Shown piece by piece: positions 3,363 to 42,635 of a stretch of 64,000 nt of DNA (positions are counted from its first letter, which is position 1; each line of letters begins with the position of its first letter). Both the position numbers and the translations under genes were made by a program. Origin of the DNA: an uncultured Chloroflexia bacterium (GTDB lineage: Bacteria; Chloroflexota; Limnocylindria; Limnocylindrales; CSP1-4); NCBI GenBank assembly GCA_963754485.1, contig CAVWFY010000013.1, positions 162,183 through 226,182 on the forward strand, in the 5' to 3' direction. Under the pieces are notes generated by a model. The model searched no databases, was not told the DNA's origin, and worked only from the letters and a program-made list of their open reading frames with translations.

Positions 3363-3578
3363 ACGCACTCTGACCAGGACGCCGCGGTTTGCTCCCACTG
3401 GCGATCACGAGTCGGGGCCGGGACCTGCGACCCCTACTTCCCCCCACTGGTACAGGGAATCGGGACCCGTGTGTGCCGGGTGACGGATTGGACACAGGCC
3501 CCGCCTCCCCTAGCATCGCCGCACGGGCCGCGTGCCGCCGTCCGCGTCGTGGGGAGCGCCAGATTGTCGCCTGACCAG

Positions 3579-4491: not shown

Positions 4492-4534
4492 TCGGGACCT
4501 CAATGGCGGGGACGCAAGACGCGACCAGCGATTC

Positions 4535-4774
4535 TCAGCGGCGGGCGGCCGACCGTTCCCTGCGAGCCTTCATGATGAAAGCTCGCCACAACGCCCCAGT
4601 CTCCTGATAGTCACGGCGTTCGAGGAGCGTCAGTATCCGACGGGCGAGCTCGCCTCGCGGCTCCCGGCGCACGCTCGCAAGCACGGGCCGCCATTCCGCG
4701 AGCGTGCCGTTCTCGAGAAGATCGTCGAGAGCGGCCAGCGAATGTCGCTGGTTGGTCAGGTGTCGATGGATCAT
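4535..4774 (-). CDS. Small hypothetical protein translationally coupled to the AbiEii-like gene
   Basis: ATGA overlap: ATG at 4774-4772 and the upstream gene's TGA at 4773-4771. The 79-aa product is MIHRHLTNQRHSLAALDDLLENGTLAEWRP... I recognise no family. Confidence 0.45.
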   Translation of the reverse strand: MIHRHLTNQRHSLAALDDLLENGTLAEWRPVLASVRREPRGELARRILTLLERRDYQETGALWRAFIMKARRERSAARR

Positions 4775-5499
4775 CGTGCGGAGCCCAGGTCCGTCCAGCC
4801 CTGCCGCCGGTTGGCTGCCGCCTCGGCAAGCTCCACGCCGAGCGCCCGGCATTGACGCTCGACACTCGACCACGAGCGCCAGCGCGGGGCGATCCCCTTG
4901 TAGTCGGCCAGGCTCGGCGAGATCGCCTCGAGATCAAAGGGGCGCGGCTTTGCGAGCTGGCGCATGAGCTGCTGACGCACCGCACCCTGGTCGTCGCCCT
5001 GTGGATACAGGCGATCGAGGGACGACAGGGCACGCGCAGAGGCCTCGAGGCCCACCTTGTCCGAGATGGCCGCAACGTCGAGGAAGTCGCGGGTCGCATT
5101 GCGGTCAACGACCAGCCACGACTTGATGCGGAGGATCTCCGCGGGCGTCGGAACGCGGATCGGCCCGCCTTCGGTCTCGATCTCGTGCGTCTCGAGGGCG
5201 GCTGTCCGCTGCTGGTTGCGAACCGTGGTCAGGATGCCATCGAGGCGGCCCTTGATCACGACTGGCCGCTGGCGACGGGCCGTCTGCCACCCGGCAACGG
5301 ACTCAAGCTCGTCGAGCACTTCGTCGAAGCGGGACGCCAATCCGGGAATCACGTGGTCGGCGTCCGCAGAGCGCCGGTGACCCGCCTCGAGAGCCGCGGC
5401 CGTTCCGCCAACCAGGGTGGCATCCGGGAGGATGTGCTGAAGTCGCGCGGCGGCCCGGAGCAGGAGTTCCCACTCCGGCAGCACTTCATGTCCCGCCAT
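4771..5499 (-). CDS. Nucleotidyltransferase, AbiEii/AbiGii toxin-like
   Basis: LVGGTAAALEAGHRRSADADHV matches the GG..hR.S.D.D nucleotidyltransferase motif style of the AbiEii family. ATG 5499 has a GGAGG 8 nt upstream. The ORF is open to GTG 5535. Confidence 0.6.
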   Translation of the reverse strand: MAGHEVLPEWELLLRAAARLQHILPDATLVGGTAAALEAGHRRSADADHVIPGLASRFDEVLDELESVAGWQTARRQRPVVIKGRLDGILTTVRNQQRTAALETHEIETEGGPIRVPTPAEILRIKSWLVVDRNATRDFLDVAAISDKVGLEASARALSSLDRLYPQGDDQGAVRQQLMRQLAKPRPFDLEAISPSLADYKGIAPRWRSWSSVERQCRALGVELAEAAANRRQGWTDLGSAR

Positions 5500-5526
5500 C
5501 GAGTCCACCTCCGCACGTGTCCACGG

Positions 5527-5556
5527 CTGTCGCACATCTTAGGGTAGGTGCGACAG
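5527..5556. promoter_or_regulatory. Perfect 9-bp inverted repeat CTGTCGCAC-N12-GTGCGACAG just upstream of the AbiEii-like gene
   Basis: Read directly. It lies 28-57 nt upstream of ATG 5499 on the - strand. It could be an operator or a 5' UTR hairpin. Confidence 0.35.
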
Positions 5557-5746
5557 GGCTCCGGGCGCCCGGAGGCCGCCGAGTGACCTACCGCACTCGC
5601 AGCTCGACGGTCGCCGTTGTGCCGTCGTCGGCGGGGAGGGCGACCCGCCAGCGATCGCCCATTGGCCCAGGGGGATCGCATCCGCGATGCGACGCCCCAC
5701 CATCCCATCGAGGATTTCGTGGCGCGCCAGGTTCCGCCAAGGGACG

Positions 5747-6196
5747 CTACAGCGACCCGCGCGGCGCCGCCCAGCGCGTTCGCTGCCCCGTGATGCCGGC
5801 GATCACGTCGTAGTCCGCGTCGTAGTGGACGAGGACGATGTCGTTGCGAGCGGCGACCGCAGCGATCAGCAGGTCCGGAATCTTCACCCGCCGATGGTGG
5901 AGTGGACCCTGGGACGCGAGCGCACCGAAGATGCGTCGCGCCTCCACCCAGTCCACTGCCTCCACCGGGAACCACGGACAGGCGAGGAGCGCGGCCTCGG
6001 TGGCGCGGAAGTCCGCGGCATCCCGGGTACTGAAGAGCACTTCCATCGCCACCTGGTCGCAGACCGCGACCTGGCCGTCCTCCACAGCGGAGGCGAACGA
6101 GGCCAGCGCGGGGTGGCCGAGGCGGGCCCAGACCGAGGTGTCTGCCAGCTCCACGACGGGGGCGACCACGCGGGAATCGACCTCGAGGGCCATCAC
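5747..6196 (-). CDS. vapC: PIN-domain ribonuclease toxin VapC
   Basis: PIN-like acidic residues in ELADTSVW, AMEVLFS, IPDLLIAAVA and HYDADYD. ATGA overlap with the upstream antitoxin. Confidence 0.8.
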   Translation of the reverse strand: MMALEVDSRVVAPVVELADTSVWARLGHPALASFASAVEDGQVAVCDQVAMEVLFSTRDAADFRATEAALLACPWFPVEAVDWVEARRIFGALASQGPLHHRRVKIPDLLIAAVAARNDIVLVHYDADYDVIAGITGQRTRWAAPRGSL

Positions 6197-6405
6197 CGGG
6201 CGGCGTCGCGCGGTGCTCGGAGCTCCGGGAGCAGCGTCTCGAGCTCCGAGAAGTCGCGACGGACCAGCCAGGCGCGCCGGCGACGCGCGACGACCTCGCG
6301 AAGAGCGGCGTGCACCGTCTCCGTTGTCCGTTTCGTGCCCAGGGCCTCGGCGGCCTGCGCCAGGAGGTCGTGATCCAGGTCGAGCGTCGTGTGCACCTTG
6401 GCCAT
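6193..6405 (-). CDS. vapB: VapB-type antitoxin
   Basis: MAKVHTTLDLDHDLLAQAAEALG... is typical of small type II antitoxins. GGAG lies 6 nt upstream of ATG 6405. The stop overlaps the vapC start. Confidence 0.7.
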   Translation of the reverse strand: MAKVHTTLDLDHDLLAQAAEALGTKRTTETVHAALREVVARRRRAWLVRRDFSELETLLPELRAPRDAAR

Positions 6406-6750
6406 CGCCGTCTCCAGGTCGGTCTCCATCGCACGCGGATGCGTGGATAGTGCCTCGAGTCTACGCATGACGGTCAACCTCACTCACGCAGCCAGGGCAA
6501 GTGCGAGGCTCGCACCAACCACTCACCTGGGACTTGCGACCTCGCCCCGTCGCAACTGGCCCAAGCGGGCCCAACGGCCCGCCGAGCGTGGGCACGTCGG
6601 GCCGCAGGGTATAGACGGCCCGGTGCGCGGGCGCCACGCCCTGTATCTCAGTTCTATCCCTCGACAGATGGGAACGCGCGCTCGCGTACGCGAGGATTGA
6701 CCGAGGTCGGTCCGTCCGAATCCGCCGGCCGTGGAGTGAAGGTGCCAAGA

Positions 6751-7736
6751 ATGTCCCGGGTCACGTCCCTGACCAACATGCCCGACAAGCAGCTGAACCG
6801 CTGGATCAAGCGGATCGCGCTGCTGTCCGTCGTCGTCCTCGTCGCGTTCGTCGCGTTCTACGCCGTCGACCGCTTCCGGGCTCCTGCTCCCACGATGGCC
6901 GAGCGCGAGATCGCCGTCCTCGAGGAGGCTCTCGCAGAGAATCCGACCGACATCCCGTCGCGCGGACGCCTGGCGGATGTCTACGTCGCGGCCGCGCGGT
7001 ACGACGACGCGATCGCTCCAGTACGAGGAGATCCTCAAGACCGGCAAGGAGGACCGGGCGGCCTACATGGGCCGTGGCCGTGCGCTCGAGCTCAAGGGCG
7101 AGCTCGACGCGGCAGCCGCCGACTACAACGAGGTCGTGAAGCTGTCCACGGGCGGTGAGATGGCCAACATCGACTCCTGCGCTCGCCGCTGCGTACTACG
7201 GCCTCGGGTCCATCGCCATGAAGCAGGACAAGCCGAAGGATGCGATCGACGTGCTCCTGAAGGCGCTGGCCATCAAGCGGACCGACGCCGACACGATGGC
7301 GCTTCTCGGCTCCGCCTACGTGAAGGCCGGCACGCCTGACAAGGCGGTCGAGCCCCTTCGCCGGGCGATCGTGTTCGTCCCAGTCGGCTGGGTCGAGCCC
7401 TACCAGACGCTCGCCGCCGCCTACACCGCGAGCGGCGATCCGGAGCTTGCCGAGTGGGCCGACGCAATGGCCGCCGCACAGACAGGCGACAGTGCCGGCG
7501 CGATGACACGTCTCCAGGCGTTGACCGGAGGCGAGGCTGCGCTCGATGCCATGATCGGCCTCGGCCAGATCGCCGAGGTCGGGGGCGATCCCACGACCGC
7601 CGCCGACTGGTACCGCAAGGCCCTCGAGGTCGATGCCGAGAGCCAGGCCGCGAAGCTCGGCCTGGGACGCGTATCCGATGGCACGCAAGGCCATCCCTCG
7701 ATCGAGCCGTCCCCCAGCGCCGAAGGTAGCAACTGA
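6751..7736 (+). pseudogene. Membrane-anchored TPR-repeat protein, two +1 frame shifts (about 7017 and 7175)
   Basis: Three ORF fragments join seamlessly: ..YDDAIA/QYEEILKTGKEDRAAYMGRGRALELKG..ANID/PALAAAYYGLGSIAMKQDKPKDAI.. An N-terminal TM helix is present. TGATG overlap with the next gene. Confidence 0.7.
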
Positions 7737-8804
7737 TGACTGCGTCCCCCGCCGTCCCCGAGGCCCAGCCAAGCCCCGACGGGGCAGCGGTTCCTCCCGA
7801 GCTGGCCAGCGAGGAGCCGCCGGTTCGTCGCCGACGGAAGCTCCTCCTGCTGCTCTTCCTGCTCCTGCTCCTGGCTGCCCTGCTGGGTCTGGCGATCTGG
7901 TACCTCCTCTTCCGCCAGCCGATCGCCATGCTGCCCACCATTCCCGTCATCCCCGGCGAGGCGGTCATGCCCGGCTACGTGACCACGATCTACGGCGCCC
8001 AGCGCCCGATGGATGTGGCCGTGAACGCGGCCGGTGACCGGATCTACATCGGCGAGACCGCGGGCGACAACACGGCGCGGATGTTCGATGCCCAGGGAAA
8101 GGAGCTGGCGAAGCTGCTTCCGCCCCTGTCAACGGGATCCGACCACGTGCCGATCTACCTGGCGGTCAACCCGGTGACATCCGAGGTCTATGTCTCCGAC
8201 AGGCCGAAGTCCACGATCTACATCTACGACGCAGCCGGGACGTACCAGCGCGCATTCACGCCGCCGGCAGAGGCAGACGGGCTGGCAGCCGCTCGGCATG
8301 ACGTTCGATGCGAGCGGCAACCTCTATGTCACGGACGTCGGCACGACGCCGAACCGCGTCTGGGTGATCGATCCGGCAGGCAAGGTCCTCCGCACGATCG
8401 GGGAGAACGCGGGCTGGCCTTTCCGAACGATGTCGCGGTCGACGCGGCCGGCTACACGTACGTGACCGACAGCAACAACGGCCGCCTCCTGGTCCACGGG
8501 CCCGACGGCGTCCTGAGGGCGACGGTGAGCCGGGGCACCGGGACCGGCAAGCTGGGCCTGCCCCGCGGCGTCGCCGTCGACCAGGGCGGCAGGGTCTACG
8601 TCGTGGACACCAACGGCCAGATGGTCATGGTCTACAGCCAGTTCACAGGAAGGCGCCGATCGACTCGACTACCTGGGCTCCTTCGGGACTCCGGGTGTCG
8701 CGAATGGCACCTTCGCCTACCCCAACGGCATCGCGGTGGACGCTCGGGGGCGGCTCTATGTCGCCGACTCGGCCAACGACCGCGTGCAGTTGTGGAGCTA
8801 CTGA
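7736..8804 (+). pseudogene. Membrane-anchored NHL-repeat beta-propeller protein, three frame shifts (about 8280, 8412, 8648)
   Basis: Poly-Leu TM anchor. NHL-like blades are spread over frames: VAVNAAGDRIYIGE, LAVNPVTSEVYVSD, MTFDASGNLYVTDV, VAVDAAGYTYVTDS, VAVDQGGRVYVVDT, IAVDARGRLYVADS. The shifts sit in short G runs. Confidence 0.75.
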
Positions 8805-8912
8805 GACCGAAGCGACATAGAGGGAGGTGGGATCGGAGTCAGCAGCGCAGCCGCCATTGCGGCGGACAAGAGTCAAGCCCACGTATTGATAGAGAAAGGA
8901 GGTGAGGACAGT

Positions 8913-10151
8913 TTGAAGAGACTGATGCTGCTCATCGCAGCAGGTTCTCTCTGGCTGTTCCTTGCCGCGGTCCCCGTCTTCGCTGACGGTGGCCCGCACG
9001 TGGCTGCGATCAACAACGGCACAGGCAATGGCGGGGCTACCCTTGCCGCTGACTCCTGCGCCGGCTGTCATCGCGCCCACACGGCGCAGGGCGAGTTCCT
9101 GCTCAAGGACAGTGGCGGAATCGCGACGTGCACCTCGTGCCACGGCGCGTCAGCGGCCTGGGTGCCACGACCGACGTCGAGAACGGCATCCAGTACGTGC
9201 TCGGCACGAACCCCGTTCGTGATCCGGGCACGACGCTCGGGTACCTCCGCAGCGGTGGCTTCGTCACCGCCCGGATCGGGTCCGGCGAGGCCTACCGCGT
9301 GGCGTACCTCGAGCGGGACCAGCGTTCGCCAGAACGCCAAGGTTCCCGTCCGCACCGCGGGCTCGCAGGCCGTCACCTCCGCTCACCTGCCCAACACGGG
9401 CGGCGTGATCGAGGCGGCCGACGGCGTGGCCTGGGGCAACGGTCCCGACAGCGCCACGGCGTACGCCGGCCCCGAGGTCGACGTCGAGTGCACCACGTGC
9501 CACAACCCGCACGGGAACGGCGCGTACCGCATCCTCAATCCCATCCCGGATCCGGCTGCGACGGGCACCGACGTGTTCGTCCCGGCCGCCGCAGCAGCAC
9601 CCGTCACCGACGCAGCCGATTCCGGCCGCCGGCGACAACCGCAACTACACCATCATCCAGACGAACGGCGGCACCGGGACGCTCACGGCGAACCAGGTGG
9701 CGGCCCTCGGCCTGCCGGCGACGGCGGGCGACTACTGGCGGCGCAAGGTTCCGTGGAACGGCACCGAGCGGCACGTCCAACGACGCGCCCAACGGCCAGT
9801 CCGCAACCTTCTACCGCGGAGATCTCGACCTGGTGCCTGACGTGCCACACGCGCTACCTCAGCGCGGGATGGGACGTGGAGACGCCGGACGCGATCTACA
9901 AGTACCGCCACACGTCCAATGCGACGTCACGGAACTGCATCACGTGCCACGTGGCACACGGTTCCAACGCGCAGATGCCGGGCATCTAGTCGGCCAACAT
10001 GGAGTACCCGGGCGGCGCGGCTGCCCCGGTCGGCAACAGCCGGCTCCTCAAGGTCGACAACCGCGGAACGTGCCAGCTTTGTCACGATCCGACGGGAACC
10101 ATCGTTGCAGGACAGGCGGTCGGCCCCGTGCCGGTCCCGCTCCTTCCCTAG
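8913..10151 (+). pseudogene. Secreted multihaem c-type cytochrome (6 CxxCH), about 5 frame shifts plus in-frame TAG at 9987
   Basis: AAGGAGG RBS, then TTG 8913 and signal peptide KRLMLLIAAGSLWLFLAAVPVFA. Haem motifs: CAGCH, CTSCH, CTTCH, CLTCH, CITCH, and after the TAG in the same frame CQLCH. Confidence 0.7.
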
Positions 10152-10358
10152 CAACGTCAAGCGCGTGGTGGCCGGCGGGGCAACTCCCGGCCACCCGCAA
10201 CCTTCCACCCGGCCGAAGCCGCGCCGGGGAGCTGCCAAGTCGTAGCACTTGACGTCTCCTCCGCGCAGCTCCCGCCCAAGCCACGCTGCCGGACCCTCGG
10301 GTCACCGGCCCCCACGGGTGAATGTCCAACACCTCGCCATGACAAAGCAGATGCCAGC

Positions 10359-12788
10359 ATGAACCTCAAGCAGCGACCCGCAAGCCGCCGGGCCGGACCC
10401 CTGTTCGGCGTGCTTCTCGTCGTCGCTGGGGCAGTCGGCGCCCTCACGCCGGCCGTGCCGGCGGTGCGTGCCCTGGACCCGACGCCGGCTCCCTCGTCGA
10501 TCCCACGCCGGCTCCGGTCGATCCCACGCCGGCTCCGACGGTCGGTCCCCACGCCGGCTCCGGTCGATCCCACGCCGGCTCCGGTCGATCCCACGCCGGC
10601 TCCGGTCGATCCCACGCCGGCTCCGGTCGATCCCACGCCGGCTCCGGCCCCGGCGCCCGATCCCACGCCGCGCCGTCCGGTCGATCCCACGCCGGCTCCG
10701 ACGGTCGACCCCACGCCGGAGCCGTCCGCGGAGCCGTCCGCCGAGCCGTCGCCATCCGCCACACCGTCGCCGTCCCCGACGCCGTCGCCGTCCCCGACGC
10801 CGCCCATCGGACCCCAGGTCCAGCACGCCTGGATCGACACCGTCAGCGAGACCGGCGCTGTGGCCGCCCCCGGCTGGCTGGACGCACCCCTCGACGCGGC
10901 ACAGCGGTTCACGGTCTACCGCGTCCGGTTCCAGCTCCTCAACGACTCCGGCATCGGCGCCACGCTCGAGCCGGTCCTGGAGTTCTCGGGTGGATCTGCC
11001 GACTGGACGGCGGTGCCGATGGTCGACCCGGATCGCGGAGCGGCGTTCTTCGGCGCATCCGACGACGGCAGCGAGTTCAACGTGCGCCGGACCACGATCG
11101 AGGTCGCCGACCTCCGCCTCGCCCAGGCCTCCGATCCGCTCGCGAGCGCGGCGCCCGGCCAGAGCAGCGCGGGCCTGGAGCTCGCGGCCGTTGAGCTGCC
11201 CGCCCACAGCTTCACCGAGATCGAGTTCGCCGTGCGGGCCACCGTGGACGCAGCGTGGGGCAGCGCTACCGGTTCCGGCTCGTCGACCCGTCCTCCCGGC
11301 TCCCGGGGGTCGAGGCTGAGTTGATCATGGGCGCCAAGCCCGCCATCGACCTGTCTCCCGGGCAGCAAACGGGCACGCCCGTCGACGAGCCCGTGCCGCT
11401 CTACCGGCTCGATCCCACAATCGGCTCGACCGACCTGCCAGTGGCCCAGGCGACCGGCACGGGCCGGATGGCGACGTACGCGCTGCAGCGTCCCATGGCG
11501 GCGATCAGCCCCGAGGGCTCGCCGCACGTCACCTACGGGCTGGCGTCGGACACGTGCGGTTCGTGCCACGCGGCCCACGACGCCCAGGGCCCGATGCTGC
11601 TCCAGGAGCCCGATCCCCAAACGTCGAACTGCTTCACGGTGCCACGACGGGACGGGCGCTTCGAGCGACGTCCAGAGCGACTGGTCGAACCCGTCGATCC
11701 CCGTGAACGACCCCGCGAGCTCGTCCTGGTATTCACATCCCGCCACGTCACCCTCGAACCACACGTCGGCCCGGTTGGACGAGTTCGGGGGCACCCTCAA
11801 CCGCCACGCGGTCTGCGCGGACTGCCACCAGCCACACCTCGCCGACGGGACCCGGCCCGTCAACAGCGTCGGCGGGTGGTCGGCCTCGGGCCCCATCGCC
11901 GGTGCGTCCAGCGTCGCCGTGGTGAACGGCCCTGCCGGCTCGGCGCCGGCATACACCCTCCAGGTGACGTCCACCTTCGAGTACGAGCTCTGCTTCAAGT
12001 GCCACTCCGGCTTCACCAACCTGCCCGCGCAGGATCCGAGCCACCCGAGCCGGTGGGCGCTGGACAAGGGCATCGAGCTCAATCCGGCCAACGTCTCCTA
12101 CCATCCCGTGGAAGCCGCCGGGAAGAACCAGACGAGCGCGATGACACTGAGCCTCGCTGGCACGTCACCCTACAAGCTCTGGGTCTTCGAGACCGACGAC
12201 ACCGTCCGCTGCCAGAGCTGTCACGGCGAGAGCTCCGTGGTCGACCAGTTGCCCAAACCGGCCGTGGACGCGAGCCTGGACAACCACGCCTCGGCGAACC
12301 GCGGGATCCTGATCGCGCCGTACAAGGATCGGACGCTCAACGAGCGCGGGCTCTACCAGGCGCAGAACTTCGCGCTCTGCTACGTCTGCCACGCGGAGGC
12401 GCCGATGGTGGACGACAGCGGCGACCTCCGCAGCGACACGAACTTCAGCTGGCACGGCTACCACATGAACGACATCAGCGGCGAGGGCCGTGGCGGCCTG
12501 GATATCGACGTTCCCGGCGCCGGCCCCGGCAACGCCACCTGCGCCGAGTGCCACTTCAGGACGCACGGGACCGCGCTGGCCGTCAACGGCCAGGCGCCGG
12601 CAACGGGCCTCGTGAACTTCGCTCCCAACGTCCAGCCCAGGAGCGGGGTCCTGCAGTTCGTGCCCGCGACACCGACCACCATGGGCACGTGCACCCTGAC
12701 CTGCCACGGCAAGCCACACAACGCGTACGGCTACGACTTCCCTGGATACACCGTAGGATCGGCACCGGTCGATCCTCTCCCAGGGTGA
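10359..12788 (+). pseudogene. Signal peptide + Pro/Thr-rich tandem-repeat linker + beta-rich domain + octahaem cytochrome domain, frame-shifted (about 10493, 10548, 11258, 11638)
   Basis: N-terminal signal MNLKQRPASRRAGPLFGVLLVVAGAVGALTPAVPAVRA. DPTPAPV repeats. The domain continues across the shift (..FAVRATVDAAW/GQRYRFRLVD..). Haem motifs: CGSCH, CFT(g)CH, CADCH, CFKCH, CQSCH, CYVCH, CAECH and CTLTCH. The cytochrome part has no signal peptide of its own. Confidence 0.6.
10476..10720 (+). repeat. Coding 21-bp tandem repeat gatcccacgccggctccggtc (DPTPAPV), about 9-10 units with variants
   Basis: Read directly. A compensating -1/+1 pair inside the array gives the out-of-frame stretch SSIPRRLRSIPRRLRRSV. 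Confidence 0.85.
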
Positions 12789-13018
12789 GCGCTATCCCCC
12801 TGTATCAACCGGTACAGAGGGCTGCGCGTATCTCCCCCCTCTGGCCCTGCCCGGTCCCGGTGGAAATGTGCGCCCCGACGGATGGGCCGCAGCCGTTCCT
12901 CCCCCGACAATCCTCTCAGGTGTCAGGCCGCGACCCCTGCGGCAACAGATGAGGGATCCAACATGGTTCGCACCCCTGCGCGCGGCCGACGTTGCGCGCG
13001 TCCCCGGGGAGGGCTCGA

Positions 13019-14191
13019 ATGAGCGCCCCGATGCTCCGGCCCACGGGGCAAGCGGCCGCTGAGACGGTGGCGCTGGCCCAGCTGGGCCTTCCCCCGAGCG
13101 CGTCCCCCGAGGACGTTGACCAGCTCCACCAGTCCGTCAGCGACTATCTCTCCTCTGCGCCCCCGGAGATCCGCGGCTGGGCTCGCGCCCAGGTCGCGGC
13201 GCTCGACGCGGCGTACATCACATTGACCGACCCAGCTGGACTCGAGGGCTCGGCCCTCATGAGCCCGGCGAGTCCGCCTGCGGTCGTACCCGGCGGGCCG
13301 GCGACACCTCCGGCCCGCCGGGGCTCTGACCTGGAGGCGGCCGCCTCCGTCGATCCCCAGGCCGACGAGGCCGACGAGATCGAGATCGAGGGTGAGCCCA
13401 GCGCCGAGGACCTCGCGGCCCTCTACGCGATGGTCACCCCCAGCGCGCACGACGACATGAAGCCCGACGCGAAGCGGGCCAAGCCCGCTGCCCCTGCTGC
13501 GCGTACCGTCGCCGCTGCCGGGACCCCGACCCCGCCCGCATCCAACATCTGGAAGCGGATCGTCATCGGCGGCGTGGCGCTGATCGCCATCGGTGCGGTC
13601 GCCTTCGGCGCGAACGCGATCGTCAACGGCACCCCTGCCGGCGGCGATCCGTCTGCCAGCCAGGTCGCCGAGGCCACCAGTGGCGCCCCGGCCATCGACG
13701 AGGCCAAGGTGGCTGACCTGATGGCCAAGGTCCAGGCGGATCCGAAGGACGTCGCGACCCTCATGGCCCTGGCCGACGAGTTCTACGCCGGCGGCCAGTA
13801 CGAGACCTCCGCCACCTGGCTGGACAAGCTCCTGGCGATCGATCCCGAGAGCATCCAGGGCCTCCTCGCCCGAGGAGCGGTGTACTTCAACCTCAACGAC
13901 CTGGCCAATGCCGAGTCGACCTGGAAGAAGGTCGCCACCCTCGAGCCCGACAACGTCGAGGTCCACTACGACCTGGGCTTCCTCTACATGAACCAGGCGA
14001 ACCCAGACTGGGCCGGCGTCCAGGCGGAGTGGACAAGGGTCATCGAGCTCGACCCCAGCTCCCAGCTGGCCCAGACGGTGCGGTCGCACCTGGACTCGCT
14101 GGTCAAGTCGTCCATGGTGCCCGGCGCCTCCGCCGGGGCCAGCGCGGCGCCTACAGCCGCCCCCTCCCCGGCGGCAAGCACCACGCCATGA
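13019..14191 (+). CDS. Membrane-anchored TPR protein, CcmH/CcmI(NrfG)-like cytochrome biogenesis accessory candidate
   Basis: Central TM helix IVIGGVALIAIGAVAFGA. C-terminal TPRs: ALADEFYAGGQYETSATWLDKLLAIDPESIQGLLARGAVYFNLNDLANAE... ATGA-coupled to ccdA. Confidence 0.65.
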   Translation: MSAPMLRPTGQAAAETVALAQLGLPPSASPEDVDQLHQSVSDYLSSAPPEIRGWARAQVAALDAAYITLTDPAGLEGSALMSPASPPAVVPGGPATPPARRGSDLEAAASVDPQADEADEIEIEGEPSAEDLAALYAMVTPSAHDDMKPDAKRAKPAAPAARTVAAAGTPTPPASNIWKRIVIGGVALIAIGAVAFGANAIVNGTPAGGDPSASQVAEATSGAPAIDEAKVADLMAKVQADPKDVATLMALADEFYAGGQYETSATWLDKLLAIDPESIQGLLARGAVYFNLNDLANAESTWKKVATLEPDNVEVHYDLGFLYMNQANPDWAGVQAEWTRVIELDPSSQLAQTVRSHLDSLVKSSMVPGASAGASAAPTAAPSPAASTTP

Positions 14192-14976
14192 TCGAGCTCG
14201 GCAGCGCGCTCGGCATCGGGATCGCCTTCATCGGCGGCCTCGTGTCGTTCGCGTCCCCGTGCTGCCTGCCGCTCGTGCCGGCGTACATCTCGTACATGGT
14301 GGGCGCGACCGGTGAGGGCACCACCGGTCGCCGCCCCGCCTTCTTCCACGGCCTCGCGTTCGTGGCCGGCTTCTCGCTCGTGTTCGTGGCCTTCTTCGCC
14401 GCGATCGGCGCGCTGGGTGCCTTCATCGACCGCCGGATCATGAACATGGTCGGCGGCGCGCTGCTGGTCTTCCTGGGCCTCCAGGTCGCGGGCGTGATCA
14501 ACGTCCGGGCCCTGTGGCGGGACACGCGATCGATGCCCACGATGGGCGGCGGGCTGGTGATGGTCGGCGGCAACGGCGGCGGGGGCGGCAGCAGCCGTGG
14601 CAACGGCGGCGGCGTCTCCGCGCTCGGCCAGGACACGCCGGGCTACCCGCGCTCCTTCCTGTTCGGGCTGCTGTTCGCCGCGGGCTGGAGCCCGTGCATC
14701 GGCCCCATCCTGGGCGGGATCCTGGGCCTGGCTGCCGCGAGCGCGAGCGTCGTCTCGGGCACGGTCCTGCTGGTCGCCTACGCGGCCGGCCTCGCGATCC
14801 CGTTCCTCGCGATGGCGCTGGGCGCCTCGTGGGTCTCCCAGCGGCTGACCTGGGTCGGTCGCCACCACCACGCCGTCTCCGTGGTCACGGGCGCGCTGCT
14901 CGTGATCCTGGGCGTGCTGATGCTCACCAACACACTCGGACGGCTGGCCGCGCTCGGCACGCCGTTCGGGATCTGA
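14188..14976 (+). CDS. ccdA: Cytochrome c biogenesis thiol-disulfide transporter CcdA/DsbD-family
   Basis: FASPCCLPLVPAYISY and AAGWSPCIGPILG motifs. Multi-TM. Carries a Gly-rich loop insertion (GGNGGGGGSSRGNGGG). Confidence 0.85.
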   Translation: MIELGSALGIGIAFIGGLVSFASPCCLPLVPAYISYMVGATGEGTTGRRPAFFHGLAFVAGFSLVFVAFFAAIGALGAFIDRRIMNMVGGALLVFLGLQVAGVINVRALWRDTRSMPTMGGGLVMVGGNGGGGGSSRGNGGGVSALGQDTPGYPRSFLFGLLFAAGWSPCIGPILGGILGLAAASASVVSGTVLLVAYAAGLAIPFLAMALGASWVSQRLTWVGRHHHAVSVVTGALLVILGVLMLTNTLGRLAALGTPFGI

Positions 14977-14990
14977 GGAGGTCGCCTGAC

Positions 14991-16460
14991 ATGACCCACG
15001 AGGTCAACAGCCGCCCGCTCCCCCCGGCCACGGCGCAGGCCCCGGGTGCGGCTGCCCGCCCCTCGGCGATGGACCGCGTGGACCGCGGCCTGGAGGGGCT
15101 CTGGCACCTCCTGTCGTCGATGCGCGTCGCCATCGTCATCATGCTGGGGATCGCGATCCTCGGCGTCATCGGCTCGCTGCTGATGCAGATGCCGGCCGAG
15201 GCGATCGCGGATCCGGCACGCCGGACCCTGTGGCTGGACAGCGTCCGGCCGCGATACGGCGGCTGGACGGACGTCTTCAACGGCCTCCAGCTGTTCGAGG
15301 TGTTCAGCTCCGTCCTGTTCCGGATCCTGGTGGCAGCCCTGACGATCAGCCTGATCGCCTGCTCCATCCACCGGATCCCGGGCGTGATCCGCACCGCACG
15401 CAACCCGCGCGTTGACGTGGGGCCGGCGTTCTTCGAGCATGCACCCCAGCACGAGGCCATCGTGGCCCGGCGGTCCGCCGCCGAGACCCAGGGCATCGTC
15501 GAGGGCGTGTTCAAGGGACGTCGCTACCGCGTCCTGTCGACCGACGACGGCACGGTCCACCTGTACGCCGACCGCTTCCGCTGGGCACCCGTCTCGGGCA
15601 TCGTCGCCCACCTGTCGCTGGTGCTCATCATGCTCGGAGCGATCGTCGGCGGCATGTACGGCTACCGGAACCCGCAGTTCATGGTCTCCGAAGGTGAGAC
15701 CCTGCCGGTTGCCGCCCAGGCCGGCCTCGCCCTCCAGGTGCTCGACTTCACCGACAAGTACGACCCGACGACCGGCCGGCCGATCGACTACGCGAGCCAG
15801 GTCGTGCTCCTCAAGGACGGCCAGGAGGTCAAGCGGCAGACCGTGCGGGTCAACGACCCGCTCCGCTACGAGGGCCTGACCTTCTACCAGGCGTTCTACG
15901 GGGCCTCGGCCGCCATGACCGTCAAGGACAAGGACGGGAACGTCGTCCTGCAATCGGCGGGCGTGCCGCTCGCCTACGAGACCGAGGAAGGTCGCAAGTT
16001 CGGGATCTTCGCGATCCCCGGCACGAGCTACAGCGCCGAGATCACCGGGACGCGCGGCGGCACCGACCCCGAGATCAAGCCCGGGCAGGTCGGGATCGGC
16101 ATCTACGCAAGCGGACAGAACTCCTTTGAGGACTCCAAGGTGATCGACCAGGGCAAGCCGACGCAGGTCGGCGACCTGACGGTGACCTTCGAGCGCGAGG
16201 GACAGTTCACCGGCCTCAACGTGGCGCGCGATCCGGGCGTTCCCCTGATCTGGATCGGCTCGTTTCTCCTGCTCGGCGGCTTCGTGGTCCGCTTCATGGT
16301 CCCGAACAAGCGGGTCTGGGCCCGCATCGTGAGCCGCCCAAACGGCGGCACCGTCGTCAGCCTGGCGACCCTGACGCACAAGGACGTCACCGCCGGCTCC
16401 GACTTCGAAAACGTCGTCACCGACATCCGCACGGCGCTCCAGGCGCCGGCGCAGGCCTGA
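14991..16460 (+). CDS. resB: System II cytochrome c biogenesis protein ResB/Ccs1
   Basis: GAGGAGG RBS before ATG 14991. N-terminus LLSSMRVAIVIMLGIAILGVIGSLLMQ. Large extracytoplasmic domain and a C-terminal TM helix, typical of ResB. Adjacent to ccsA. Confidence 0.85.
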   Translation: MTHEVNSRPLPPATAQAPGAAARPSAMDRVDRGLEGLWHLLSSMRVAIVIMLGIAILGVIGSLLMQMPAEAIADPARRTLWLDSVRPRYGGWTDVFNGLQLFEVFSSVLFRILVAALTISLIACSIHRIPGVIRTARNPRVDVGPAFFEHAPQHEAIVARRSAAETQGIVEGVFKGRRYRVLSTDDGTVHLYADRFRWAPVSGIVAHLSLVLIMLGAIVGGMYGYRNPQFMVSEGETLPVAAQAGLALQVLDFTDKYDPTTGRPIDYASQVVLLKDGQEVKRQTVRVNDPLRYEGLTFYQAFYGASAAMTVKDKDGNVVLQSAGVPLAYETEEGRKFGIFAIPGTSYSAEITGTRGGTDPEIKPGQVGIGIYASGQNSFEDSKVIDQGKPTQVGDLTVTFEREGQFTGLNVARDPGVPLIWIGSFLLLGGFVVRFMVPNKRVWARIVSRPNGGTVVSLATLTHKDVTAGSDFENVVTDIRTALQAPAQA

Positions 16461-16475
16461 GGGAGGCATACCGCC

Positions 16476-17552
16476 ATGGCAAAGCTTTCCGAGTACATGT
16501 TCGTCGCATCGATCTTCATGACGGGCCTCGCGCTCGTTCTCTACCTCTCCTACGCGATCTCCGGCCTGCGGGCGGCCCGCCTGCAGACCGCGGGCGGCCC
16601 CAGCACGGGCGGCTCGATCGGCGTGGTCTCGGGCCCGCGGACGGCCGCGATCGGACGCTACGCGACGCTGCTCACGTGGCTCGCGACCCTGACCCTGCTG
16701 GCGAGCCTCGTCTTCCGGGCGATCGTCACCGGCCACGGGCCGTTCGCCAACATGTACGAGTTCTCGATGGCCTTCGCCTTCGGCATCCTCGTGACCTACC
16801 TGTACTTCGAGCACAAGTACCACCAGCGCATCCTGGCGCTCATCGCCCTGCCTGTCGCGCTGGGCATGCTGCTCTACGCCGCCACCATCCCGGCGGACAT
16901 CGAACCGCTCGTCCCCGCCCTGCAGAACAACCTCCTCCTGACCGTCCACGTTGCCACCGCCATCGTCGCCTACGGCTCGTTCGCGATCGCGTTCGCCGCG
17001 TCCTACCTCTTCCTGGTCCAGACCGGGTCAGCGCTGACCATCCTGTCGGCCACCGTGGCAGGAGCCATCGCTGCGCTCGTCGGAGCCATCACCGGCGGTG
17101 CCACCAACGCCTTCGTCTACGGCATGGTGGCGACCGTCGTGGTGCTGCTGGCCATGTCGATCGTCACCTGGCTCACCGGTCGAGGGACGCCCCCCTCCGC
17201 CGCGACGGATGGCGCGAGCAGCGGACGATGGGGCCTGCCGAAGCCGCTGGTGCTCGACGAGATCGGGTACCGCGCCGTGGTCGTCGGCTTCCCCTTCCTC
17301 ACCCTGACGATCATCCTCGGTGCCGTGTGGGCCGAGACCGCATGGGGCACCTACTGGAGCTGGGACCCCAAGGAGACCGCGTCTTTGGTGACCTGGCTGA
17401 TCTACGGCGCCTACCTCCACGCCCGCGTGATGCGTGGCTGGCGCGGCAACCGTGCGGCGTGGCTGCTCGTGATCGGGTTCCTGGCCACGCTGCTCACCTA
17501 CTTCGGCAACCTCATCTTCGGCGGGCTCCACAGCTACTCCGGCCTCGGCTGA
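16476..17552 (+). CDS. ccsA: System II cytochrome c-type biogenesis protein CcsA/ResC (haem handling)
   Basis: Trp-rich WWD-type motif WAETAWGTYWSWDPKETASLVTWLIYGAYLHAR. Polytopic. Confidence 0.9.
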   Translation: MAKLSEYMFVASIFMTGLALVLYLSYAISGLRAARLQTAGGPSTGGSIGVVSGPRTAAIGRYATLLTWLATLTLLASLVFRAIVTGHGPFANMYEFSMAFAFGILVTYLYFEHKYHQRILALIALPVALGMLLYAATIPADIEPLVPALQNNLLLTVHVATAIVAYGSFAIAFAASYLFLVQTGSALTILSATVAGAIAALVGAITGGATNAFVYGMVATVVVLLAMSIVTWLTGRGTPPSAATDGASSGRWGLPKPLVLDEIGYRAVVVGFPFLTLTIILGAVWAETAWGTYWSWDPKETASLVTWLIYGAYLHARVMRGWRGNRAAWLLVIGFLATLLTYFGNLIFGGLHSYSGLG

Positions 17553-17583
17553 CCCGAACGACGACGCGAAGGGAACGATCCGC

Positions 17584-18183
17584 ATGAACGCAGCGAACGC
17601 CTCCACGCGGCCCGCCGGGCGCATGGCCGGCCGGCTGCAGACGATCGTGGTGATCGCCGTGGTTGCGGTCGTGGTCGGCGTCCTGGCCTGGTCGGCCAGC
17701 GGTGCCGGGATGACCGACGGCGTGACGGTCATCGAACTCCCGGCCGGGGCCGCGGACTCCGCCCCCAGGGTGGGCGCAACTCCGCCGGACTTTGCCGGCG
17801 TCACGTCCGACGGCACGCCGATCTCGCTCTCGGACTACGCAGGCAGGCCGGTGTGGCTCACATTCGGTGCATCCTGGTGCCCGGACTGCCGGGTGGAAGC
17901 GCCGGACATCGAGGCCGCGTACCAGGCGAACAAGGACAAGGGGCTCGCGGTCGTCGGCGTGTTCATCAGCGAGAGCGCCGAGGACATCGCGAGCTACGCG
18001 GGCCGGGCCGGCCTCACCTTCCCCATCACGGTAGACCAGCAGGAGGCCATCGCCGCAGCCTACCGGACGATGGGCGTGCCCACCCACTTCTTCATCGGCG
18101 CCGACGGGAAGGTCCGCGAGGTCCGGATCGGAGCCCTCTCCAAGGACGACATGGCCCGCTCCATCGCAGGAATCATGAACTGA
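17584..18183 (+). CDS. Membrane-anchored thioredoxin-fold thiol:disulfide oxidoreductase (TlpA/ResA family)
   Basis: N-terminal TM helix. Active site WLTFGASWCPDC. Sits immediately after ccsA. Confidence 0.85.
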   Translation: MNAANASTRPAGRMAGRLQTIVVIAVVAVVVGVLAWSASGAGMTDGVTVIELPAGAADSAPRVGATPPDFAGVTSDGTPISLSDYAGRPVWLTFGASWCPDCRVEAPDIEAAYQANKDKGLAVVGVFISESAEDIASYAGRAGLTFPITVDQQEAIAAAYRTMGVPTHFFIGADGKVREVRIGALSKDDMARSIAGIMN

Positions 18184-18190
18184 GGGTTCA

Positions 18191-19870
18191 GTGAGCGACC
18201 CCGAAGGCAGCGGCGTTCAACCGGCCGACCAGGCGCCGGTTGTCGAGGGCGCCCCCGAGGAGTCGGTCGCGGAGGAGTCGGTCGCGGACGCCGAGTCTGT
18301 CCCGGCCCCGCGTCGTCGCCATCCGTTCTACCTGCGTGGCCGGCGCCTCCGCCTGCCGCGGTCGCGAGCCGGTCTGTTCGCGCTGCTCCTGGTCCTGGCG
18401 GCCGGCGGCAGCGTCATCGCGTTCACCGGCGTCACGATGATCCAGTGGACCGAGACCGCCGACTTCTGCGGCCGGTGCCACACGATGGACCCGGAGCTCG
18501 GGGCCTATCACCTGGGCTCCCACCGGGACGTCTCGTGCGGCGAGTGCCACGTGGAGCCCGGGATCGCCGGCTGGGTCAAGGCCAAGCTCGCGGGCACGCG
18601 CCAGCTGGTGGGCGTCGTGACGGGCGTCTACCCCACCCCCATCGAGCCGCCCGACCACGCGGCGCTGCCCAAGACGGAAGACACCTGCCAGAAGTGCCAC
18701 TCGCTCAACGACCGGGAGTTCGCGGACCTGCGCACACGGACACAGTTCAAGGAGGACGAGAAGAACTCGCGCGAGTTCGTTGCCCTCAACATCCGGCCCG
18801 GCGGGGGTGACGTCTTCGACGTCAACCGCAGCGTCCACTGGCACGTCCTGTCCGAGTTCAGCTACCTCTCACCAGATGTCAACTCCGCGGTCATCGACTA
18901 CGCGACCGCCACCCGCGACGACGGCACGAAGGTGGAGTACATCGCCCGCAACAAGATCAACAACACGGAGGACGTCCGGGCGGACATCGAGGCGCTCAAG
19001 GCCGTTGACCGCGACGTCACTCTCAACTGCTACGACTGCCACAACCGGGTGGGCCACGACATCCAGAACCCGCGGCCCAACCTGGACTACCAGCTGTCCC
19101 AGGGCCTGATCGACCCGTCCCTGCCGTACGTCAAGCGCGAGGGGATGCGGATCCTATGGTCCGGCTTCCCGGACGACGAGACTGCGCACGCCGAGATCGA
19201 CAAGCTGGGCGACTTCTACAAGCTGAACTATCCGGACGTCTACGCCACCAAGGGCGCCCAGATCGAGGCGGCCAAGGACGAGCTCAAGGTCCTCTACGAC
19301 CTAACCACGACACCCGCCATGAATGTCACGGCTGCCACCTACCCGAACCAGATGGGCCACGAGGACTGGCCGGGCTGCTTCCGCTGCCACGACGGCGCCC
19401 ACTTCAAGGTCGTGAACGACGTCGCCACCACCGAGACCATTCCGTCAACCTGCAACACCTGCCACACGTTTCCCCAGATCGGGCCGGCCGTGGCCAGCCT
19501 CCCGTTGGGCGAGCCGCCGAGCACCCACACCGACGACTCCCTGTGGGTGTTCAACCACAAGAGCGTCGCGACATCCGTGGATCCCGGCGGTCAGACGTGC
19601 GTGGAGTGCCACGCCCGCGACTACTGCGTGAACTGCCACTCGACGGGCGCCGTGAGCATCGACCACGACACGATGGCGACGAACCACGCGGCCGTGATCC
19701 GGGACCAGGGGACCCAGTCGTGCGCCTACTGTCACCAGTCCGCGCAATGCGCGGTGTGCCACGTGGAACCGGTGCTGCCCGTGACGTCGCCGGCTTCCGG
19801 GGGTACCGAGGAGGGCTGGCGCCTGGAGCCGCCGGCCGGGATGTCGTTCCCGCTGGCGCCACCGGGCTGA
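18191..19870 (+). CDS. Membrane-anchored decahaem cytochrome, NapC/NirT(NrfH)-like N-terminus
   Basis: TM anchor LFALLLVLAAGGSVIAF followed by CGRCH..CGECH..CQKCH in NapC/NirT-like spacing. Further motifs: CYDCH, CFRCH, CNTCH, CVECH, CVNCH, CAYCH and CAVCH. The frame is intact. Confidence 0.8.
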   Translation: MSDPEGSGVQPADQAPVVEGAPEESVAEESVADAESVPAPRRRHPFYLRGRRLRLPRSRAGLFALLLVLAAGGSVIAFTGVTMIQWTETADFCGRCHTMDPELGAYHLGSHRDVSCGECHVEPGIAGWVKAKLAGTRQLVGVVTGVYPTPIEPPDHAALPKTEDTCQKCHSLNDREFADLRTRTQFKEDEKNSREFVALNIRPGGGDVFDVNRSVHWHVLSEFSYLSPDVNSAVIDYATATRDDGTKVEYIARNKINNTEDVRADIEALKAVDRDVTLNCYDCHNRVGHDIQNPRPNLDYQLSQGLIDPSLPYVKREGMRILWSGFPDDETAHAEIDKLGDFYKLNYPDVYATKGAQIEAAKDELKVLYDLTTTPAMNVTAATYPNQMGHEDWPGCFRCHDGAHFKVVNDVATTETIPSTCNTCHTFPQIGPAVASLPLGEPPSTHTDDSLWVFNHKSVATSVDPGGQTCVECHARDYCVNCHSTGAVSIDHDTMATNHAAVIRDQGTQSCAYCHQSAQCAVCHVEPVLPVTSPASGGTEEGWRLEPPAGMSFPLAPPG

Positions 19871-20092: not shown

Positions 20093-20963
20093 CTACCCCC
20101 GCCCGGTCGCGACCCGCTCCGGCCGCGAATAGACGTTGAAGCCGTCGCCGCGCAGGAAGCCCACCAGGGTCACGCCCAGCCGCTCCGCGGCCTCCACGGC
20201 GAGGTCGCTCGGGGCGGAGATGGCGGCGAGCAGCGGGATGCCCGCCACGGCCGCCTTCTGGACGAGCTCGAAGCTGGCCCGGCCCGAGACCAGCAGCACC
20301 CGATCGTTGAGCGGCAGCTCGCCGGCCAGGAGCCGGCTGCCGACGAGCTTGTCCAGCGCGTTGTGGCGGCCGATGTCCTCGCGCAGAGCGACGAGCGTCC
20401 CGTCGGGGTCGAACAGACCCGCCGCGTGGAGGCCGCCGGTGGCGCCGAAGACGGCCTGGCCCTCGCGGAGCGCGCTCGGGGAGGGCGAGCAGCATCTCCG
20501 GCGTCACGACCGGACCGTCCGGGATCGGCGCGCAGCGCACTTCCACCTGGTCCAGAGAAGCCTTGCCGCAGATGCCGCACGACGCGGTGGCCACGAAGTT
20601 GCGGGACGCGATGCCCGCGGGGTCCAGGGGCTGCGCGAGGCGAACCAGGACGTCGTCGTCCGGGCGGGCGTGGGTCCCCGGGTCCGCGACCTCGATGGAC
20701 ACGATGTCCCCGCGGCCGTCGATCAGGCCCTCAGTCAGCAGGAACCCGGCCGCGAGCTCCGCCTCGTGACCCGGGGTGCGCATGGTGACGGCGATGTCGA
20801 TGGGGTCCTGGCCCGGGCCGCAAGCGCGGATCGCCATGGGCTCCTCGCCGGCCAGGCGGTCCTCGCGCGTCTCGACGACACCGGCTCGCCACGCCGTCAC
20901 CCGGACGGACGCGGCCTGGCGCTCTATGGACGGCCGTTCCGTGGCCGCCGCGTTCTCGCTCAA
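20093..20963 (-). pseudogene. fdhD: Formate dehydrogenase accessory sulfurtransferase FdhD, one frame shift (about 20470)
   Basis: MRTPGHEAELAAGFLLTEGLI and ASCGICGK lie in one frame. ..[64 protein letters not shown] lies in the next. TTGA overlap with the decarboxylase stop. Confidence 0.8.
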
Positions 20964-38838: not shown

Positions 38839-38889
38839 CCGGCGGGGCACGGGGCCGGTCGGGCCGCCTCGGGTACAGTCGGCCGCACC

Positions 38890-42635
<3,746 letters not shown>

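Follow-up and report, generated by a model that had tools for sequence, protein, structure and literature searches.

The uncultured Chloroflexia bacterium represented by assembly GCA_963754485.1 (GTDB lineage Chloroflexota; Limnocylindria; Limnocylindrales; CSP1-4) carries a conserved cluster of ten genes for three multihaem c-type cytochromes, their candidate scaffolds and a cytochrome c maturation system. The cluster lies on the + strand at positions 6751-19870 of the stretch analysed here, 64,000 nucleotides of contig CAVWFY010000013.1 (positions 162,183 to 226,182, GC ~71%), which is called the window in the following. Our interpretation, which we give a probability of roughly 0.55, is that the cluster encodes a dedicated extracytoplasmic chain that would link the membrane (mena)quinol pool, via 24 c-type haems and without a porin, to a partner beyond the cytoplasmic membrane.

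An earlier note, made from the letters of this DNA alone, had described ten consecutive + strand genes in this region. This was borne out, and the domain assignments hold in Pfam and NCBIfam (Table 1). The six downstream genes are clean open reading frames (ORFs), the four upstream ones (TPR1, NHL, MHC6 and MHC8) are broken as written. Frames in the GC-rich window were found by third-position GC content and hidden Markov model-style frame segmentation. Plain tblastn masked the breaks by reading through wrong-frame stretches; a frameshift-aware aligner was used instead, and the domains of the four broken genes were read with Pfam from the orthologues at a related locus, L006. Transmembrane anchors and signal peptides are supported by hydropathy. 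A recount of the haem-binding sites gave the 24 that had been claimed: 6 in MHC6, 8 in MHC8 (7 CXXCH and 1 CX3CH) and 10 in the decahaem cytochrome, i. e. 23 CXXCH motifs and one CX3CH. Of the overlapping stop and start codons noted earlier, those at TPR1/NHL and TPR2/CcdA (ATGA) are real; CcdA and ResB are 15 nt apart. All ten ORFs could be assigned by Pfam, and neither a beta-barrel porin nor a catalytic reductase gene is found among the cluster genes. A search for the exact sequences of the window's decahaem and CcsA returned no matching record.

Table 1. Genes of the cluster, followed by the features upstream of it, in window coordinates.
Feature	Position	Strand	Evidence and remarks
TPR1, transmembrane-anchored TPR protein	6751-7736	+	frameshift-aware alignment, Pfam TPR, transmembrane segment
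NHL, transmembrane-anchored beta-propeller	7736-8804	+	70.5% identity to L006; Pfam NHL 98 bits on L006 orthologue; transmembrane segment
MHC6, secreted hexahaem c-type cytochrome	8913-10151	+	6 CXXCH; Pfam Paired_CXXCH_1
MHC8, stalked octahaem cytochrome	10359-12788	+	7 CXXCH + CTLTCH; Pfam Paired_CXXCH_1, PT repeat
TPR2, transmembrane segment and external TPR domain	13019-14191	+	Pfam TPR_11/TPR_2
CcdA (DsbD_TM), thiol-reductant transporter	14188-14976	+	Pfam PF02683 48 bits
ResB/CcsB, System II cytochrome c synthase subunit	14991-16460	+	Pfam PF05140 250 bits; start codon
CcsA/ResC, haem-handling subunit	16476-17552	+	Pfam PF01578 147 bits; TIGR03144
ResA/TlpA-like thiol-disulfide oxidoreductase, transmembrane-anchored	17584-18183	+	Pfam AhpC-TSA/Redoxin; CPDC
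Decahaem cytochrome, transmembrane-anchored, NapC/NirT N-terminal region	18191-19870	+	Pfam PF03264
GAF + HisKA_3 + HATPase sensor histidine kinase	1-1547	+	5' end cut by window edge; Pfam on full-length L006 orthologue
NarL/LuxR-family response regulator	1504-2202	+	Pfam Response_reg + GerE
XRE-type helix-turn-helix (HTH) protein	2434-3237	-	tblastn to L006 orthologue 62% identity; Pfam HTH_3/HTH_31 on L006 copy
Y200, small conserved cytoplasmic protein	3555-3953	+	only in Chloroflexota versions of the cluster
Rieske [2Fe-2S] protein	3967-4491	+	Pfam PF00355; twin-arginine motif, lipobox LLAGC
Insert unique to the window versus all relatives, between Rieske gene and operon leader	4492-6570		2.1 kb
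254-aa ORF in insert	4771-5535	-	no family match
VapC (PIN) in insert	5747-6196	-	VapBC pair intact
VapB in insert	6193-6483	-	VapBC pair intact
Non-coding operon leader	6580-6750	+	inverted repeat GATACAG/CTGTATC, invariant TTCTATCCCTCGACGGATGGGAA, Shine-Dalgarno GGAGTGAAGG

The decahaem cytochrome had been described as a membrane-anchored protein of the NapC/NirT type, and our results agree with this. The 559-aa protein has ten CXXCH motifs, one transmembrane helix (residues 64-82 of the L006 orthologue) and, at residues 58-189, a match to PF03264 (Cytochrom_NNT) of 38.8 bits versus a cutoff of 24.1. Its only relative in the PDB is NrfH (2j7a, E = 5.6e-9). The first haem motif, C93-x2-C96-H97-x-M99 (CXXCHxM), was kept in 71 of 71 aligned sequences, and all 10 CXXCH motifs, M99 and 11 additional histidines are conserved in at least 90% of these. 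In the NrfH crystal structure of Rodrigues and coworkers from 2006, CXXCHxM reportedly marks the Met-ligated, quinol-facing haem 1. By its transmembrane helix, Cytochrom_NNT match and CXXCHxM the protein belongs to the NapC/NirT family, as an NrfH/NapC-like quinol-dehydrogenase module fused to a hexahaem extension. These three features are shared with NrfH, NapC and CymA, which however have ~160-200 aa and four haems. The decahaem is not an orthologue of NrfH, NapC or TorC, with scores below the NCBIfam equivalog cutoffs (NrfH 57.6 vs 134.2, TorC 28.9 vs 455, NapC 17.4 vs 349), and no gene for an NrfA, Nap or Tor partner is present in this cluster. Its family comprises 354 representative clusters at E <= 1e-30.

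The two other cytochromes are predicted to be exported. MHC6 has a signal peptide, and its L006 orthologue matches Paired_CXXCH_1 with 68 bits besides showing MtrC/MtrF II-IV-like and c7-like matches. MHC8 is built from a signal peptide, a Pro/Thr stalk (10482-10802), an Ig/FN3-like beta-sandwich and an octahaem domain, with Pfam matches at the domain level to Paired_CXXCH_1, the PT repeat, MtrC/MtrF-like (II-IV) and c7 families. The linker of DPTPAPV units between signal peptide and haems, already recognized in the earlier note, is encoded by a tandem repeat of 21 nt x 7.6. In the AlphaFold (AF2) model of MHC8 a beta-sandwich of 170 residues follows the stalk with a pLDDT (predicted local distance difference test) score of ~90; a fold search with it returned only Ig/FN3-like sandwiches, and these weakly (E >= 1e-3). 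The Pro/Thr repeat together with the modelled sandwich would be typical of surface-displayed proteins. What MHC6 and MHC8 have in common is only a paired-CXXCH module of 57 columns (hhalign probability 97.5%), which is weakly MtrA/DmsE-like (TIGR03508 42 bits vs 192; 6r2q chain A, E = 0.1). An invariant His in a DGGPH (or SPH) motif was observed ~15 residues before the first CXXCH, just after the predicted signal peptide cleavage site; in MHC6 it occupies residues 25-29 (window ~8985-8999), and MHC8 has an equivalent. In filaments of the OmcS type, subunits use an N-terminal His to ligate a haem of their neighbour.

Are MHC6 and MHC8 electron carriers or enzymes? MHC6 contains six invariant extra His for its 6 haems and MHC8 nine for its 8. 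This leaves every haem with one or more invariant His to spare, a pattern that fits bis-His electron-transfer haems, not catalytic ones. If one or both were nonetheless enzymes, acting on nitrite, hydroxylamine, sulfite, tetrathionate or a similar substrate, the decahaem would be their NrfH-like quinol-oxidising partner. In favour of this, modules of the NrfH type usually work with a multihaem reductase of their own, and in the PDB the decahaem matches only 2j7a, the structure of NrfHA. A surface cytochrome can also be multifunctional, as OcwA of Thermincola, which reduces oxyanions, electrodes and shuttles and is related to nitrogen- and sulfur-cycle cytochromes (PMC7911101). We consider an enzymatic role very unlikely, however: neither Pfam nor NCBIfam gave a match of MHC6 or MHC8 to the NrfA, hydroxylamine oxidoreductase (HAO), octahaem tetrathionate reductase or MccA families, no CXXCK motif occurs in either protein, and a conserved His is available as sixth ligand for every haem. 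Sequence and profile searches of the PDB yielded no enzyme and no credible relative of the two proteins, the profile matches being short haem motifs. Thus the cytochromes of the cluster are, by Pfam and NCBIfam, not orthologues of NrfA, HAO, NrfH, NapC or TorC, the characterised periplasmic systems that the earlier note had considered as possible alternatives, and MHC6 and MHC8 have no credible relative of solved structure.

The maturation block was confirmed by Pfam for all four families that had been named (CcdA, ResB, CcsA and a TlpA-like thioredoxin). CcdA has the conserved Cys27, Cys28 and Cys172; CcsA scores 232 bits with TIGR03144 (cutoff 187.6) and contains the motif WGTYWSWD; the ResA/TlpA-like redoxin has a CPDC motif and a transmembrane anchor, its score with the ResA model (96.7 bits) being below cutoff. 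With ResB and a CcsA carrying a WWD-type motif, CcdA and a membrane-anchored CXXC protein of the thioredoxin fold, the genes have the composition of a System II cytochrome c maturation system. TPR2 consists of a cytoplasmic N-terminal domain, one transmembrane helix (residues 188-206 of the L006 orthologue) and an external TPR domain. TPR1 and TPR2 show generic TPR matches only, and the CcmH/CycH similarity of TPR2 (TPR_CcmH_CycH) is sub-threshold. TPR2 co-occurs with ccdA-resB-ccsA-tlpA-decahaem, and is probably a maturation accessory. At locus L048 there is a second, inverted TPR2-CcdA-ResB-CcsA-TlpA-decahaem module, which indicates that these six genes form a unit.

A synteny search, which the earlier note had suggested as a check, was done with one genome per species and found 64 loci, which were examined as 21-kb stretches. 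In 54 of them the gene order is kept as far as each contig extends: kinase, NarL, (HTH), Y200, Rieske, TPR1, NHL, one to three MHC6, MHC8, TPR2, CcdA, ResB, CcsA, TlpA, decahaem. The order thus recurs in two phyla, 42 of these loci being labelled Chloroflexota (Limnocylindria or 'Chloroflexia') and 12 Actinomycetota. The carriers, about 50 in number, are uncultured metagenome-assembled genomes (MAGs) from soil and freshwater, in which the cluster genes are usually intact. Full-length Actinomycetota loci are without Y200 and Rieske but keep the rest at 35-56% identity. In the distant loci (Nitrospira, Phycisphaerae including Phycisphaeraceae, Myxococcota) only NHL propellers beside paired-CXXCH cytochromes are kept. 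The conserved locus is therefore larger than the ten-gene block described before: its order extends from the regulators to the decahaem, and in 17 loci it includes a pair of genes for a second Rieske protein (Rieske2, transmembrane-anchored and PetC-like) and a cytochrome b. The pair lies directly behind the decahaem gene in 15 loci; in L036 and L040 it is found ahead of TPR1. The cytochrome b is a single 358-aa fused protein of the b6/subunit-IV type with best scores to ExtP (232 bits) and b6 (227 bits), then subunit IV/ExtQ, all of them below equivalog cutoffs. No cytochrome b lies within the 64-kb window, where a Rieske protein is present. The loci listed with the pair after the decahaem are L003, L005-L008, L010, L011, L013, L015, L016, L023, L024, L026, L034, L037 and L043.

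In many loci two to three separate MHC6-like matches were observed (L012, L014-L016, L020-L024, L043 and L046 are listed), while the window has one; some of these multiple matches may be one gene split by frameshifts. Comparison of the window with L054 revealed a further subdivision of the cluster. From TPR2 to the decahaem the two DNAs are ~90% identical and from TPR1 to MHC8 65-70%, with a sharp change at ~12797 in the MHC8/TPR2 intergenic region; errors in the two assemblies account for part of this gap. The outer genes TPR1 to MHC8 would accordingly seem to be a module of their own that evolves or recombines faster. The database names of the cluster proteins are generic ('cytochrome c3 family', 'NapC/NirT family cytochrome c'), and literature searches on cytochromes of Limnocylindria/Ellin6529/Limnocylindrales, on the Thermincola genes in Actinobacteria and on Mn oxidation in Chloroflexi turned up no paper that describes this gene order. 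That it could not be recognized as a described system before is in line with this result.

What was seen directly are the genes and their order, their conservation, the signals of topology, the haem motifs and the conserved candidates for axial ligands; from these the following scheme can be drawn. The NrfH-type N-terminal module of the decahaem would exchange electrons with quinol. The b6-type Rieske/cytochrome b pair lies beside the decahaem in about a third of the related loci; here only the Rieske lipoprotein of the twin-arginine translocation (Tat) type is found nearby. Electrons would then run over the six extra haems of the decahaem to the secreted hexahaem MHC6, and from there to the octahaem MHC8, whose haem domain would be held off the membrane by the Pro/Thr stalk, behind the Ig-like domain. 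The membrane-anchored NHL propeller and TPR1 could be scaffolds or assembly factors for MHC6 and MHC8. TPR2, CcdA, ResB, CcsA and ResA would serve as the cluster's own System II for haem attachment, and the GAF kinase/NarL pair and the conserved leader would control expression. The cluster is without a catalytic subunit, so an insoluble or extracellular terminal partner is the most likely one; Fe(III)/Mn(IV) minerals or humics could accept the electrons, or Fe(II)/Mn(II) could donate them. The protein contacts, the wall location, the direction of flow and the substrate in this scheme are what we infer; the sequence itself fixes neither direction nor partner. Thus of the envelope-spanning electron conduit proposed earlier, the parts list and the topology fit the porin-less type, while the extracellular or metal-directed function is suggested by the architecture only.

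A more specific version of this interpretation, which we put forward tentatively and at somewhat less than even odds, is that the cluster represents an undescribed, phylum-spanning, porin-less system of extracellular electron transfer. It would be made up of a conserved inner module (TPR2, System II and the NrfH-like decahaem, with or without Rieske/cytochrome b) and a surface-exposed outer module (TPR1, NHL, one to three copies of MHC6, and MHC8) that diverges or is swapped much faster, under the control of a conserved and possibly structured RNA leader.

A different function is conceivable for the same parts. The decahaem could be a c-type subunit or partner of a complex III-like Rieske/cytochrome b enzyme, and MHC6 and MHC8 could replace soluble cytochrome c in a cell without periplasm, feeding terminal oxidases or reductases of soluble acceptors (O2, nitrogen oxides) encoded elsewhere. 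In favour of such internal respiratory wiring are the Rieske2 and b6-type cytochrome b genes in 17 related loci, adjoining the decahaem in 15, the bc-type Rieske protein upstream in the window and the regulators of the NarL/NarQ family. The System II genes of the cluster may also be the only ones of the genome, and a housekeeping role would suit that. Yet 24 haems, a Pro/Thr stalk, an Ig-like domain and NHL/TPR scaffolds exceed the needs of a cytochrome c shuttle, no oxidase or reductase gene is linked to the cluster in the 64-kb window or the 21-kb loci, and the pairing of NHL with paired-CXXCH proteins recurs in clusters tied to extracellular electron exchange. We therefore regard it as unlikely, though it is the alternative to which we give most weight.

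Several observations weigh against the extracytoplasmic chain to a distant partner. The Rieske/cytochrome b pairs of the relatives could make the decahaem simply the c-subunit of a respiratory complex III. PDB searches by sequence and profile found no homology to proven extracellular electron-transfer proteins beyond the domain level. No LPXTG-type wall anchor was seen by eye in the translations of MHC6 and MHC8, and their location is therefore inferred. The structural models are of limited help: that of the MHC8 haem domain is weak to moderate (pLDDT 50-80) and that of MHC6 is unusable (pLDDT 51). The remaining genes of the window are housekeeping genes which give no hint of a substrate. Finally, all three closest MAGs have a local, roughly tenfold surplus of frameshifts in TPR1-MHC8. 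A reasonable guess at its cause is population microdiversity in the outer genes, because the identity of window and L054 drops in exactly these genes, from ~90% in TPR2-decahaem to 65-70% in TPR1-MHC8.

These frameshifts call for closer consideration, as they bear on whether the system is alive in this organism. TPR1 contains two +1 frameshifts (near 7018 and 7175; 68% identity to L006 in the frameshift-aware alignment), NHL three (near 8279, 8415 and 8645), MHC6 five (near 9150, 9314, 9618, 9766 and 9812) and MHC8 four (near 10500, 10562, 11259 and 11639, the last of which splits one CXXCH motif). In addition MHC6 has a TAG stop at 9987-9989 where the relatives have Tyr. Thus 14 frameshifts and a stop, or ~2.5 lesions per kb, fall within 6 kb, and none are found in the six downstream genes that make up the next 7 kb. 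If the outer four genes were true pseudogenes, the conduit would be defunct here while the maturation genes and the decahaem still work. Besides the clustering of the lesions, it would fit such decay that L065 and L054, the two closest relatives, are also frameshift-dense in TPR1-MHC8, and that dN/dS (the ratio of non-synonymous to synonymous substitution rates) among the window, L065 and L054 is somewhat raised (0.3-0.6). Moreover, an extra base occurs in the same three alignment columns of MHC6 in the window (9617, 9765 and 9813) and in L065 (1410, 1559 and 1607).

Repair of the frames, a check the earlier note had advised, gave a different picture. Against the intact L006 orthologues the repaired outer genes have a dN/dS of 0.25-0.36 and a third-position bias; the intact neighbours are at 0.26-0.41. 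Where at least 95% of family members share a residue, the window has it in 149/151 columns of MHC6 and 107/108 of MHC8, which equals the level of intact orthologues, and L065 has it in 151/151 of MHC6 despite 13 frameshifts and a stop. At the three shared insertion sites the inserted base differs in two. Between these sites the repaired frames of window and L065 are 58/64 identical, their nucleotide differences are distributed 4:4:10 over the codon positions, and 8/14 changed codons are synonymous. This bias and the synonymous changes indicate selection on the repaired frame since the split of window and L065, and the three shared insertions are therefore not inherited mutations. Since the sites are shared, at least some of the consensus errors must depend on sequence context.

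The nature and distribution of the lesions point in the same direction. Nearly all are single-base insertions and there are no larger deletions, whereas natural gene decay is usually deletion-biased. Similar breaks occur in other genes of the window. The fdhD gene (20096-20963, - strand; 92% identical to L065) and an ABC permease gene (23826-26019, - strand) are each broken by one single-base frameshift, at 20471 and 25869, respectively, and are otherwise well conserved. The metH gene for B12-dependent methionine synthase (38836-42635) is spread over three frames with switches near 40560 and 41193, and its pterin-binding domain is truncated at profile position 181 of 244; the split is most likely the same type of assembly error as in the cytochrome genes. 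Further long-read MAGs from the same project show similar clusters of frameshifts in different genes, for example 19 in the decahaem of L009, and the short-read relative L017 has none. For the MFD relatives, assembly was by Flye from Nanopore reads only, followed by a single Medaka polishing round (PMC12313526). Homopolymer errors were rejected as the explanation, the indels lying outside long homopolymers, and so were purely random errors, given the three sites common to window and L065. An inherited pseudogene is rejected by the codon-position pattern and the retention of residues. We judge the 14 frameshifts and the TAG to be consensus errors of long-read assembly and not signs of dead genes, and the organism therefore most likely has an intact system. 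On this evolutionary evidence (dN/dS, codon positions, retained residues) we regard death of the structural genes, which had been considered before, as highly improbable.

How does the cluster compare with known systems? For a cell without an outer-membrane conduit the closest functional analogue would be the ImdcA-PdcA-CwcA-OcwA chain of Thermincola potens/T. ferriacetica (PMC7911101, PMC6703420). There, too, a membrane decahaem is proposed to oxidise quinol, the wall is bridged by multihaem proteins, one of them a hexahaem, and another multihaem cytochrome is placed at the surface, following a porin-less logic. The Thermincola cytochrome genes are scattered, however, whereas those found here lie together in a conserved cluster, along with regulators and often a Rieske/cytochrome b pair. 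Neither NHL/TPR scaffolds nor a System II of their own are known to us next to the cytochrome genes of Thermincola. Sequence and profile searches of the PDB, which presumably holds the OcwA structure, found no match of MHC6, MHC8 or the decahaem to OcwA or another surface cytochrome. Thus the earlier view of this chain as the nearest precedent can be kept in the sense of a functional analogue but not of a detectable homologue.

Judged by the gene list alone, the closest match in parts would be the Uet cluster of 'Ca. Tenderia electrophaga' (bioRxiv 10.1101/2022.05.06.490989), which has the NHL proteins UetH and UetI, the undecahaem UetJ, CcsA/CcsB and an NrfG-like TPR protein. That organism is diderm, though, and its cluster contains the beta-barrel UetC, a peptidyl-prolyl isomerase, the cupredoxin UetF and the three c7-type trihaem proteins UetD, UetE and UetG, none of which is present here; furthermore, Uet is proposed for electron uptake. 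NHL genes also lie within multihaem cytochrome clusters linked to extracellular electron exchange in Desulfovibrio ferrophilus (DFE_0448-0451, DFE_0461-0465) and Geobacter (Gmet_0556). These systems are diderm and outer-membrane-associated, whereas the NHL protein described here is anchored in the cytoplasmic membrane via its N-terminal helix. The cytochrome b and PetC-like Rieske2 of the relatives, a pair absent from the 64-kb window, recall the Geobacter Cbc-type and ExtP/ExtQ proteins and cytochrome b6f, but score below the equivalog cutoffs and have the cytochrome b fused into one 358-aa protein. From MtrCAB and other porin-cytochrome (PCC) systems the cluster differs by having no beta-barrel, and the resemblance to MtrA/DmsE is confined to the paired-CXXCH module.

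The Rieske protein and the GAF kinase/NarL pair, said before to lie just upstream, are both present, but a 2.1-kb insert with the VapBC genes separates them from TPR1. The kinase is 80% identical to that of L006 in tblastn and has no frameshift. Its transmitter is NarQ/NarX-like, below the NCBIfam equivalog cutoffs; with these as best matches, an identity as DevS/DosS-like hypoxia sensor is unsupported. The response regulator reaches 191 bits with the NarL model (cutoff 250) and is kept upstream of the cluster in most related loci reaching that far. The gene for the XRE-type HTH protein occurs in some relatives. Y200 has no family match in Pfam or NCBIfam; judged by eye its core looks like a receiver domain without the acidic pocket (VLVLYSHPLMGEGLGRML, VLVLYSHPLMGEGLG). 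The Rieske protein has the CTHxxC...CxCH ligands of the bc/b6f type, with PetC-like NCBIfam matches below cutoff.

The leader of ~170 nt is well conserved. In an alignment of 13 loci the mean column identity is 70%, with long invariant blocks, one of them the self-complementary TTCTATCC...GGATGGGAA. Variants of the inverted repeat GATACAG/CTGTATC retain pairing only as G-U, and there is no in-frame start codon upstream of 6697. RNAalifold predicted 30 pairs with little covariation, and an Rfam search of the whole window, leader included, gave no match. The leader may be a regulatory RNA or an operator.

Our finding concerns the conserved cluster as a whole, of which the copy in the window is a low-quality rendering. 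This copy teaches that dense frameshifts in long-read metagenome assemblies can mimic gene death, and that tests of residue conservation and codon position can tell error from decay without reads. Multihaem envelope conduits are well described in Proteobacteria and a few thermophilic Firmicutes; for Chloroflexota and Actinomycetota, both of them major lineages of soils and sediments, there are to our knowledge hardly any descriptions. The cluster would provide a tangible marker gene set with which to ask whether members of these phyla take part in the redox cycling of iron, manganese or humics, and defined proteins to express and image, i. e. the NrfH-fused decahaem, the stalked octahaem and the NHL scaffold. 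If the porin-less system proves to be true, the abundant uncultured Limnocylindria and some Actinomycetota would exchange electrons with minerals or humics.

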